This document shows positions 459 through 1,277 of a stretch of 10,796 nt of DNA, piece after piece. The notes below the pieces were generated by a model. It made no database searches. It saw nothing but the letters and a program-made list of their open reading frames with translations, and was not told where the DNA came from. The translations under genes were made by a program, and so were the position numbers. The stretch comes from a virus (taxonomy: Duplodnaviria; Heunggongvirae; Uroviricota; Caudoviricetes), in the IMG/VR virus record IMGVR_UViG_2690316318_000025, positions 1 to 10,796 of that record; one strand, given 5' to 3'. Every line of letters begins with the position of its first letter. Position 1 is the first letter of the stretch.

Positions 459-1277
459 TCACCCCCTGAATCCTGCCGGGATCTGGCTGTAGTCCACGTT
501 GTCGTAACTGGCTTTGAAGTACGGGTCCTCGCGTCTGGCTGCAGATACCGCAGGAACTTCCCAGGATTCTTCGAAATGACGATCCGGACCAAAGAACGTG
601 ACAGCCTGTTTCACAAATTGTGTGCCGCTGTTACCCATCGCAGATACCCAGCCCGCGTAGCGTTTCACACCTTCCAGCATGGTTTCGGGGTTTACCCCCT
701 CATTCAAACGGGCTTTCCAGGCTTTGAAGGCTGCAGATTTTGAATTGCCACCAGCACGTTTGGGATATACCAGCCATGCCTGCTCAAACTCCGGAGAGTA
801 TTCCGGTCGGTTTGAACGAACTCGCACGGACTCATCAACTGATGCACCAACAGCTATTGGTTCATTGACTGGTTCTTTGACTGGTTCAAAAGAGTGACTG
901 GTTCTGGGTGAATCTCCTGCACTACCCCCTGGTGCAACTCCTGCACTACCTGGTGAATTTGCTGCACCAGATAGTGAATTATTTGCACTACCCCCTAGTG
1001 AATCTCCTGCACCATCCAGATGAAGGAGATAGATATTACTTGAGTTACCTTTTTCACCTTTCCGGGTGACTTTTTTTACCAGCCCGGACTCACAAAGGGC
1101 CGCAATATGATTCATCACAGAACGTTTGCTAATCTCGCACTGGTCAGCAATATGCTGGTAGCTGGGCCAGCACTCACCCTGATCGCTGGCATTATCAGCC
1201 AGCTTGATCAGAACCAGTTTTCGCAATGGATTACCCACTCGAATTTTCATCGCTTTAACCATCAGCTCCATACTCAT
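459..1277 (-). CDS. Phage replication initiation protein (lambda O-like; N-terminal winged-helix/HTH domain, Gly/Ser/Ala-rich linker, C-terminal domain), 272 aa
   Basis: ORF 459..1277 (-). ATG at 1277..1275 with GGAGGT RBS 6 nt upstream. The N-terminal segment LRKLVLIKLADNASDQGECWPSYQHIADQCEISKRSVMNHIAALCESGLV is typical of the HTH domain of phage replication initiators. A low-complexity linker (GAGDSLGGSANNSLSGAANSPGSAGVAPGGSAGDSP) is encoded by DNA direct repeats. Start overlaps the stop of the upstream 78-aa gene (ATGA). Confidence 0.8.
   Translation of the reverse strand: MSMELMVKAMKIRVGNPLRKLVLIKLADNASDQGECWPSYQHIADQCEISKRSVMNHIAALCESGLVKKVTRKGEKGNSSNIYLLHLDGAGDSLGGSANNSLSGAANSPGSAGVAPGGSAGDSPRTSHSFEPVKEPVNEPIAVGASVDESVRVRSNRPEYSPEFEQAWLVYPKRAGGNSKSAAFKAWKARLNEGVNPETMLEGVKRYAGWVSAMGNSGTQFVKQAVTFFGPDRHFEESWEVPAVSAARREDPYFKASYDNVDYSQIPAGFRG
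858..1017. repeat. Iteron-like direct repeats inside the replication-initiator gene (candidate origin of replication)
   Basis: Three copies of TGACTGGTTC (866-875, 878-887, 895-904), followed by about five imperfect 18-22 bp direct repeats of the form RGTGAAT(C/T)TCCTGCAC(T/C)ACC between 908 and 1017. They lie in the interdomain linker of the O-like gene, the position of the iterons in phage lambda ori. Confidence 0.45.

Follow-up and report, generated by a model that had tools for sequence, protein, structure and literature searches.

Where does a lambdoid prophage begin its replication when its initiator is a winged-helix protein of the HTH_36 type? The question is raised by a stretch of 10,796 nucleotides (positions 1 to 10,796 of the IMG/VR record IMGVR_UViG_2690316318_000025, a tailed virus of the Caudoviricetes), hereafter called the window, which represents the early region of a lambdoid prophage. 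A preliminary description, made from the sequence alone, had placed a group of repeats at 858-1017, within the interdomain linker of the replication initiator gene, and proposed them as a candidate origin that is both coding and cis-acting. The gene is located at 459-1277 on the minus strand, an orientation that was absent from that description, and its open reading frame translates into 272 amino acids. We conclude, with a probability of about 75%, that positions 853-1062 are the replication origin of the prophage, embedded in the linker-coding part of the initiator gene. In our best reading, this is an iteron origin of the lambda type that serves a "solo" initiator with an HTH_36 domain, of the SfV/mEp460/Eru6 type; origins of this kind are well known, and the origin of this phage family is undescribed. 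The gene is the following.

459-1277, minus strand: initiator gene, of the same type as SfV orf39, mEp460 gp43, ST64B sb42 and the "Eru6" helix-turn-helix protein of Shiga-toxin (Stx) phages (open reading frame, Pfam, PHROG and DNA identity)

All of the repeats were recovered at the place where they had been described, by exact pattern matching and by Tandem Repeats Finder, which reported the iteron array (score 77) and an array with a 12-nucleotide period at 858-888. The larger repeats had been described as about five imperfect units of 18-22 bp. Five units are indeed present, but each is an exact match to a 17-bp dyad, RGTGMA-N5-TKCACY, in which the two 6-nucleotide arms are inverted repeats. 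The five copies extend over 907-1013, corresponding to nucleotides 265-371 of the gene in the sense direction, and were located by pattern matching as follows (sequences of the sense strand).

997-1013, minus strand: iteron 1, GGTGCAGGAGATTCACT
973-989, minus strand: iteron 2, AGTGCAAATAATTCACT
952-968, minus strand: iteron 3, GGTGCAGCAAATTCACC
931-947, minus strand: iteron 4, AGTGCAGGAGTTGCACC
907-923, minus strand: iteron 5, AGTGCAGGAGATTCACC, ending 1 nucleotide before the constant core described below

The start-to-start spacing of the iterons is 24, 21, 21 and 24 bp, or about two helical turns. The array thereby consists of ten half-sites in alternating orientation, one every 10.5-12 bp or so, and these are therefore on one face of the helix. 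The dyad pattern has no exact match elsewhere in the window. Only 0.01 matches are expected by chance, as estimated from dinucleotide-preserving shuffles, with a maximum of one match in any of 200 shuffles, and within 19 kb of mEp460 the pattern is likewise confined to the rep gene. Together with the core, the repeats occupy codons 89-137, a stretch rich in Gly, Ser, Ala and Pro between the HTH_36 domain and the helical C-terminal domain, in agreement with the placement in a Gly/Ser/Ala-rich linker that had been proposed.

We compared the locus with homologues for which the DNA sequence was available, comprising 13 phages, 80 IMG/VR loci and 80 loci from different bacterial species. The IMG/VR loci all have an identical N-terminal domain and are informative on copy number, not on diversity; the comparisons overall included about 90 homologues, and 78 non-redundant genes were used for the reading-frame counts. 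A spacing of 21-24 bp predominates across the 78 homologues, and the 1-nucleotide junction between the last iteron and the core is present in 48 of them. Among near-identical genes, the common form has five iterons, and other forms have one (P0042), two (P0028, 64 contigs), six (L064 and L071), seven (P0021), eight (cdtI and P0003) or nine (P0001, P0002 and P0024). A comparison of repeat number among related prophages had been suggested in the preliminary description, and it shows variation from one to nine iterons. In P0040 the last iteron and the core are deleted, and P0042 retains a single iteron; both are close relatives and are probably replication-defective prophage remnants.

One explanation of such an array is that it is the by-product of a slippage-prone, low-complexity coding segment, a tether rich in Gly, Ser, Ala and Pro, with no cis-acting role. 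The region does encode a linker that is predicted to be disordered, and the number of units varies by whole units, as slippage predicts. However, the DNA motif is kept while the encoded peptide changes, for example from SAGDSL to SDKMSP, GAGAAR and others. In Aeromonas phage AsXd-1 (68% identity), five dyads occupy the corresponding positions and specify different amino acids, and in Vibrio phage D67 the element AGTGAY-N5-TGTCACC is repeated three times and is translated as S-D-x-M-S-P. Sixteen of the 78 non-redundant genes have their dyads distributed over two or three reading frames, and in prophages of Xenorhabdus and Providencia a spacing of 21/23/22/24 causes one DNA word to be translated in different ways.

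The choice of synonymous codons within the linker is almost fixed, against the host codon bias. In the 54 genes with GTGMA-class half-sites, 86% of the alanine codons in the linker are GCA, as compared to 17% in the rest of the same genes; the corresponding values are 78% versus 25% for the serine codons AGT and TCA, and 60% versus 27% for the glycine codon GGT. In the Pseudomonas subset, GCA makes up 89% of the alanine codons in the linker and 12% elsewhere. Segregating sites among 59 near-identical haplotypes were found at 27% of the spacer positions and 30% of the outer R/Y positions, as compared to 10% of the positions in the arms and 4% in the centres. Both arms also change together between clades, and the core shows 165 non-synonymous versus 6 synonymous differences, as detailed below. 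Judged by these alignments, the iterons and the core are shown to be under DNA-level rather than peptide-level selection. The explanation of the repeats as a coding by-product is already strongly disfavoured, and we assign it only a very small chance of being correct.

Further support for an origin comes from the relationship between the repeats and the domain that is expected to bind them.

1014-1277, minus strand: codons 1-88, N-terminal winged-helix DNA-binding domain, with the recognition helix at about residues 49-61 (ISKRSVMNHIAAL)

The sequence of the half-site varies by clade and tracks the predicted recognition helix (residues 49-58). Helices of the type ...RSV[MI]NH, with asparagine at position 56, are paired with GTGCA or GTGAA half-sites. 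All eight helices with arginine at this position are paired with GTGAC, and these represent at least 3-4 lineages, including prophages of Erwinia and Izhakiella, Aliivibrio, Vibrio phages D67 and D79, and E. coli phage mEp044. The Erwinia helices (including that of prophage L138) and the Izhakiella helices differ from the helix in the window mainly by the substitution N56R. Other pairs are RTTAINH with GTGTA, K[ST][SA]VRNH with TGCCA and DRSTVRKH with GTAGGC. In the Stx2a phage F403 the element is GGGGCA-N5-TGCCCC, such that both arms are changed and the dyad is kept. A natural hybrid, P0059, combines the N-terminal domain of F403 (Eru5), for which the parent is L006, and F403-type iterons with a C-terminal domain of the window type, joined at the core; the N-terminal domain and the repeats have therefore been inherited as one unit. 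Covariation of this kind is what an initiator and its iterons should show, and it suggests that the N-terminal domain binds the dyads.

Binding evidence can nevertheless not separate an operator from an origin, and plasmid iteron arrays also have control functions (PMC4980987). The dyads may then be binding sites through which the initiator exerts regulation, by auto-repression, as a roadblock to transcription, in copy control, or by titration of the initiators of competitors and thereby exclusion, with the origin located elsewhere. We consider this unlikely, on several grounds. The array is always coupled to a constant repeat block of low G+C content, it travels with several kinds of replication partner, and its position and geometry match those of the experimentally defined ori-lambda (PMC7466680). 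Moreover, the window showed no further cluster of repeats and no second candidate for an origin.

The repeat block to which the array is coupled starts one nucleotide past the last dyad, with AGAACCAGTCACTCTTTTGAACCAGTCAAAGAACCAGTCAATGAACC, which contains three TGACTGGTTC repeats on the opposite strand. The repeat TGACTGGTTC of the plus strand, which reads GAACCAGTCA on the coding minus strand, is present in exactly three copies, at 866-875, 878-887 and 895-904, within 39 nucleotides. These copies had been grouped with the larger repeats in the preliminary description. They are present as described, but they are not additional iterons; they form part of a distinct constant element, which is common to phages with differing iterons. 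By itself the triplet is weakly above chance, with 0.76 copies expected at one mismatch or less and three or more copies in 6 of 200 shuffles, and it is conserved across the family, with 2-5 units in relatives that have an identical N-terminal domain. A search of the literature text for GAACCAGTCA identified only unrelated primer sequences. Two features were defined in this region.

877-905, minus strand: constant 29-bp core, AGAACCAGTCACTCTTTTGAACCAGTCAA, corresponding to codons 125-134 (RTSHSFEPVK), with 23-29 of 29 positions identical in 77 homologues
853-905, minus strand: core, further GAACCAGTCA repeats and a degenerate copy, with relatively low G+C content and A>T and C>G on the sense strand; candidate unwinding or helicase-entry region B (repeats, dip in G+C content)

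The core adjoins at least five C-terminal families that are unrelated to each other by BLAST, whatever the type of iteron, and is found in Pseudomonas, Enterobacter, Marinomonas, Aeromonas, Shewanella, Xenorhabdus, Proteus, Vibrio and others, with G+C contents from 40 to 62%. The mean pairwise identity at the first, second and third positions of 11 core codons is 0.90, 0.87 and 0.89, respectively, as compared to 0.77, 0.83 and 0.43 for the N-terminal domain. Differences in these codons amount to 6 synonymous versus 165 non-synonymous changes (T>I, H>N, F>S/L/P and P>S), whereas differences from the consensus in the codons of the N-terminal domain are mostly synonymous (0.37 versus 0.18 non-synonymous differences per codon per sequence). 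Thus, it is the nucleotide sequence that is conserved and not the peptide RTSHSFEPV. Proteins that share only the C-terminal domain, such as those of Stx2_14040 ("Eru7"), a Klebsiella phage and Burkholderia phage BcepIL02, have unrelated N-terminal domains, other linker repeats and no core, and the core therefore belongs to the HTH_36/iteron module. In Stx2_14040 (L176, nucleotides 1497-2390) and BcepIL02 (L178, nucleotides 1572-2378) these linkers are encoded by short tandem repeats, for example of ACAGAGAATAC-like units, and origins within initiator linkers may be general across several N-domain families. On one E. coli chromosome (H140), a match was obtained only over a 37-nucleotide core segment (871-907; query nucleotides 413-449), inside a different helix-turn-helix gene, which illustrates that the core is common to otherwise unrelated initiator genes within E. 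coli.

The position of the core exactly at the module boundary, where the hybrid P0059 is joined, its occurrence beside at least five unrelated C-terminal families and the match of H140 to the core alone could all be taken to indicate that the core, and possibly also the repeats, is a recombination linker that promotes mosaic shuffling of N- and C-terminal modules and has no role in initiation. We regard this as improbable. Near-identity across hosts with G+C contents of 40-62%, next to flanks with 43% identity at third codon positions, needs strong direct purifying selection, and second-order selection for evolvability is unlikely to supply conservation of this degree. The variable internal repeats and the fixed distance of one nucleotide to the last iteron suggest a positional function, and the iterons would be left unexplained.

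Nucleotide conservation that is blind to codon position would also fit a signal in the rep mRNA, such as a target of a small RNA or Hfq, an RNase site or a translational pause. However, no Rfam family was identified at the repeats in a search of window positions 1-4000, the only hit there being a chance match to mir-875 (E=0.2). The repeats of the core are direct and not inverted, and thus give no reason to expect a conserved hairpin. The 17-mers are dyad-symmetric, are spaced by helical turns and co-vary with the DNA-binding helix, all of which points instead to recognition of double-stranded DNA, and we find an RNA element highly improbable. All four alternatives, whether regulatory sites, a recombination linker, coding repeats or an RNA element, are less likely than that the segment is a replication origin.

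A replication origin within the initiator gene is also consistent with the protein analyses. The initiator has a match to Pfam HTH_36 (1.8e-11, residues 17-67) and a sub-threshold match to DnaD_N, and it is assigned to PHROG 270, "replication initiation protein" (6.9e-88), with PHROG matches to replication initiation spanning the whole protein; no NCBIfam family was found for it. An AlphaFold2 model generated from a 30-sequence alignment predicted a confident winged helix for residues 1-88, with predicted local distance difference test (pLDDT) scores of 82-94. Residues 91-157 are without confident structure (pLDDT of about 30-40) and are predicted to be disordered, because of which the iterons and the core (codons 89-137) are placed entirely within a predicted disordered tether. 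The C-terminal domain is helical, with helices at residues 162-223 and pLDDT scores of 58-78.

462-806, minus strand: C-terminal helical domain (about residues 158-272), presumed to be the module that recruits the helicase or its loader (AlphaFold2, PHROG and the neighbouring genes of relatives)

This domain matches PHROG 26426, 3729 and 1701, named "replication protein / DnaD-like helicase loader". Fold searches with the N-terminal domain returned only generic winged-helix proteins, including the N-terminal domain of DnaD, and those with the C-terminal domain gave no informative match, such that the label "DnaT/DnaD-like" is derived from the PHROG names only. Searches of the PDB with the protein sequence and with the 30-sequence profile gave nothing significant. 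In the early operon of the SfV, ST64B, mEp460 and cdtI type, including the early region of mEp460, there is no helicase or loader gene. In relatives, the same N-terminal module is accompanied by a DnaC-like protein and DnaB (AsXd-1), a homologue of lambda P (Aggregatibacter S1249), a Toprim primase (F403 and S107) or a helicase (phiV039C), and C-terminal domains of the window type in other phages are followed by genes for DnaC-like loaders.

Based on these data, we propose the following mechanism. The N-terminal winged-helix domain would bind the five 17-bp dyads as dimers, and the bound array may form a wrapped complex resembling an O-some, from which the resulting stress would open an adjacent segment of low stability. 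The favoured opening site is the 29-bp core, which carries GAACCAGTCA repeats. It adjoins the last iteron on the 3' side, at the position that corresponds to the A-rich tract of lambda, and the repeats may be read in a sequence-specific manner, as are the 13-mers in the unwinding elements of plasmids and of oriC. The C-terminal domain would then recruit the replicative helicase, presumably as the DnaB-DnaC complex of the host, because the phage type encodes no helicase or loader and because C-terminal domains of the window type are followed by DnaC-like loaders in related phages. As a disordered tether, the peptide specified by the origin would accept any residues that the DNA signals impose. 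A circular phage genome of 44.6 kb with an identical rep protein has been deposited as a "plasmid", which is weakly suggestive of replication. Matches in a plasmid collection are mostly circularised phage genomes of about 40 kb, and not small plasmids of the kind that would demonstrate a minimal replicon.

A tentative extension, to which we give clearly less than even odds, is that the core acts universally as a sequence-specific element of initiation, which could be a site of unwinding or of helicase entry that is read as single-stranded DNA. The reader could in that case be an invariant face of the HTH_36 domain or a conserved host factor. Readings of the core as a site for integration host factor (IHF) or for primase (CTG) were dropped on inspection by eye, since the positions that they need to be conserved are the variable ones.

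The base composition of the gene identifies a second candidate for the opening site.

1018-1062, strand unspecified: A/T-rich segment containing the least stable 30-mers of the gene, immediately 5' of the iterons in the gene sense; candidate unwinding region A (G+C content 0.33-0.38)

The lowest nearest-neighbour stability in the gene is at gene nucleotides 216-260, and a family-wide dip in G+C content of 9 percentage points is observed at the same offset. The core has the deepest relative dip along the gene across the family, by 12 to 14 points. In a scan of 300-1600 for terminators, a single terminator-like hairpin with a T-run was found at 1054-1069 on the plus strand, antisense to the initiator gene and in the A/T-rich patch just before the iterons; one such structure is within chance expectation. 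A scan for sigma-70 promoters over 300-1600 gave none, and an antisense promoter suggested by the motif TTGACT in the core was dropped on the basis of this result.

Several observations weigh against the conclusion that 853-1062 is the origin. The core region has a G+C content of 40-43% in the window, and is thus far less AT-rich than the tract in lambda, and the least stable DNA is located on the opposite side of the iterons from the core. With no strongly AT-rich tract and the least stable DNA across the iterons, the site of unwinding is uncertain. No DnaA box TTATNCACA (with one mismatch or less) was found in 459-1277, and the whole window contains 9 such boxes versus 10.1 expected; neither was there a cluster of GATC sites near the initiator gene. 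The covariation and the codon statistics are derived from phylogenetically related sequences, such that nominal P-values (Fisher) are overstated, although the codon effect is very large, and the automated assignment of half-sites is noisy for some clades. A comparison of the window protein with lambda O by BLASTP gave no meaningful alignment. Accordingly, the term "O-like" in the preliminary description is appropriate for the function and architecture of the initiator, but not as a statement of sequence homology detectable by BLASTP or Pfam. Finally, no report of origin activity or of initiator binding was found in the literature searched, and one study describes the replication of the "Eru" phages as wholly uncharacterised (PMC8951638). 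Weighing these points, we still find that the proposal of a lambda-like candidate origin, coding as well as cis-acting, is supported by the dyads, their spacing, their placement in a predicted disordered linker, the DNA-level constraint, the covariation with the helix and the variation in copy number.

The genetic context of the initiator is that of an early rightward operon, in which the gene follows the cI/cro/cII-like genes. On the minus strand, the order is a cro-like gene, a cII-like gene, an Ash/antirepressor gene, a small open reading frame, the replication gene at 459-1277 and, directly downstream, a gene for a PerC-family regulator. The cI-type repressor is encoded on the plus strand, divergently from the early genes. 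The initiator gene is 99% identical in DNA sequence to those of mEp460, SfV and several Stx2c and Stx2a phages, and 897 of 5,426 complete E. coli genomes carry it almost in its entirety. It overlaps both of its neighbours by 4 nucleotides of the ATGA type, at 459-462 with the PerC-like gene and at 1274-1277 with an upstream open reading frame of 78 amino acids, which suggests translational coupling along the operon. Two Rfam matches were obtained on the minus strand further upstream, to the C4 antisense RNA (RF01695; 1791-1878, 82 bits versus a gathering score of 45) and to the Hfq-binding RNA isrK (RF01394; 1903-1979, 64 bits versus a gathering score of 50). Both are within the listed open reading frame at 1503-2339, for which the Ash domain covers only the C-terminal part, and in RefSeq an identical region is annotated with a shorter "ash family protein". 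These features, a short distance upstream of the replication gene, look like an antirepressor control unit of the P1/P7 c4-ant or Gifsy isrK type.

The initiator is present in functional phages (SfV, mEp460, ST64B and cdtI) and in Shiga-toxin phages of the "Eru6" type. Replication drives the dosage of the toxin gene in Stx phages, and a defined origin with its initiator-site pair would provide a concrete handle. The comparative data provide a natural specificity table of recognition-helix residues versus half-sites. Where a cis element is hidden in a "disordered linker", as in this region, scans of dN/dS, codon optimisation or genome recoding would misinterpret or disrupt it. The ultra-conserved core is the part that would surprise a specialist. 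If it has the tentative role outlined above, it would be common to temperate phages across the Gammaproteobacteria, regardless of the specificity of the iterons, the C-terminal domain and the partner that delivers the helicase. The origins would then follow a two-part grammar, with variable iterons that co-evolve with one or two helix residues and a constant "engine", and the core would be a clear natural case of a DNA signal that fully overrides the protein in a coding segment.

The closest known system is ori-lambda. In the lambda paradigm, iterons and an AT-rich tract are located in the middle of O; lambda has four iterons and Stx phages have six, and a pair of iterons with the AT tract is enough for unwinding (PMC7466680). 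In the lambda record, four 18-bp iterons are annotated at nucleotides 349-433 of O, with a spacing of 20/24/23, after the Phage_rep_O domain and before an A-rich sense strand. The candidate origin resembles this one, and the six-iteron origins of 933W and P27, in that the array lies midway through the initiator gene, where it separates the coding sequence of a DNA-binding N-terminal domain from that of a C-terminal domain expected to bind a partner. It is likewise transcribed from the early rightward operon, and the iterons are dyad-symmetric, spaced by 20-24 bp and different in number between relatives, with an A-rich sense strand following in lambda. Unlike lambda O, which itself matches Phage_rep_O (PF04492) at 5.7e-36, the initiator in the window has an HTH_36 domain and not Phage_rep_O. 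The sequence of the iterons is unrelated to that of lambda, a 29-bp direct-repeat core conserved across many genera is found rather than a plain AT-rich tract, and in place of the P-type loader gene of the O/P module the initiator is followed by a PerC-like gene. Among other lambdoid phages, P22 (gene 18) and phi80/82 offer leads in the same direction, with origins in the initiator gene and phage-specific repeats beside a more conserved region. P22 has its own DnaB-type helicase, and the partners for helicase delivery differ among P22 and phi80/82.

Iteron plasmids provide a second comparison. The locus resembles RK2 oriV/TrfA, F/RepE and R6K/pi in having a winged-helix initiator, tandem iterons in helical phase and adjacent short direct repeats. 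The Rep proteins of RK2, F and R6K recruit the host DnaB-DnaC complex (PMC4980987), to which the proposed system may be likened. In RK2 and F, the 13-mer repeats of the unwound element are recognised sequence-specifically by the Rep proteins as single strands (PMC4980987), and by analogy this would be the best precedent for the core. Plasmid iterons, however, are found outside of the rep gene and are in most cases asymmetric sequences that bind monomers, whereas here they are dyads inside the coding sequence. There are also no DnaA boxes nearby, and a single winged helix is predicted by AlphaFold2, as opposed to a WH1-WH2 pair.

The Stx-phage literature classifies this module as "Eru6" and that of F403 as "Eru5", and notes the HTH_36 motif with no mention of iterons (PMC8951638). 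The published link between lambda O and HTH_36 is a remote one, by HHpred only, and was reported together with DopC, a domesticated lambda-O-like HTH_36 protein of the Cellvibrionales and Oceanospirillales (PMC5509034). DopC and the initiator in the window share an N-terminal HTH_36 domain, a replication-associated C-terminal domain and pairing with a helicase-handling partner. Its authors detected nothing resembling iterons in dopC and judged the gene to be no longer an origin (PMC5509034), whereas the phage genes described here have kept both the iterons and the core.

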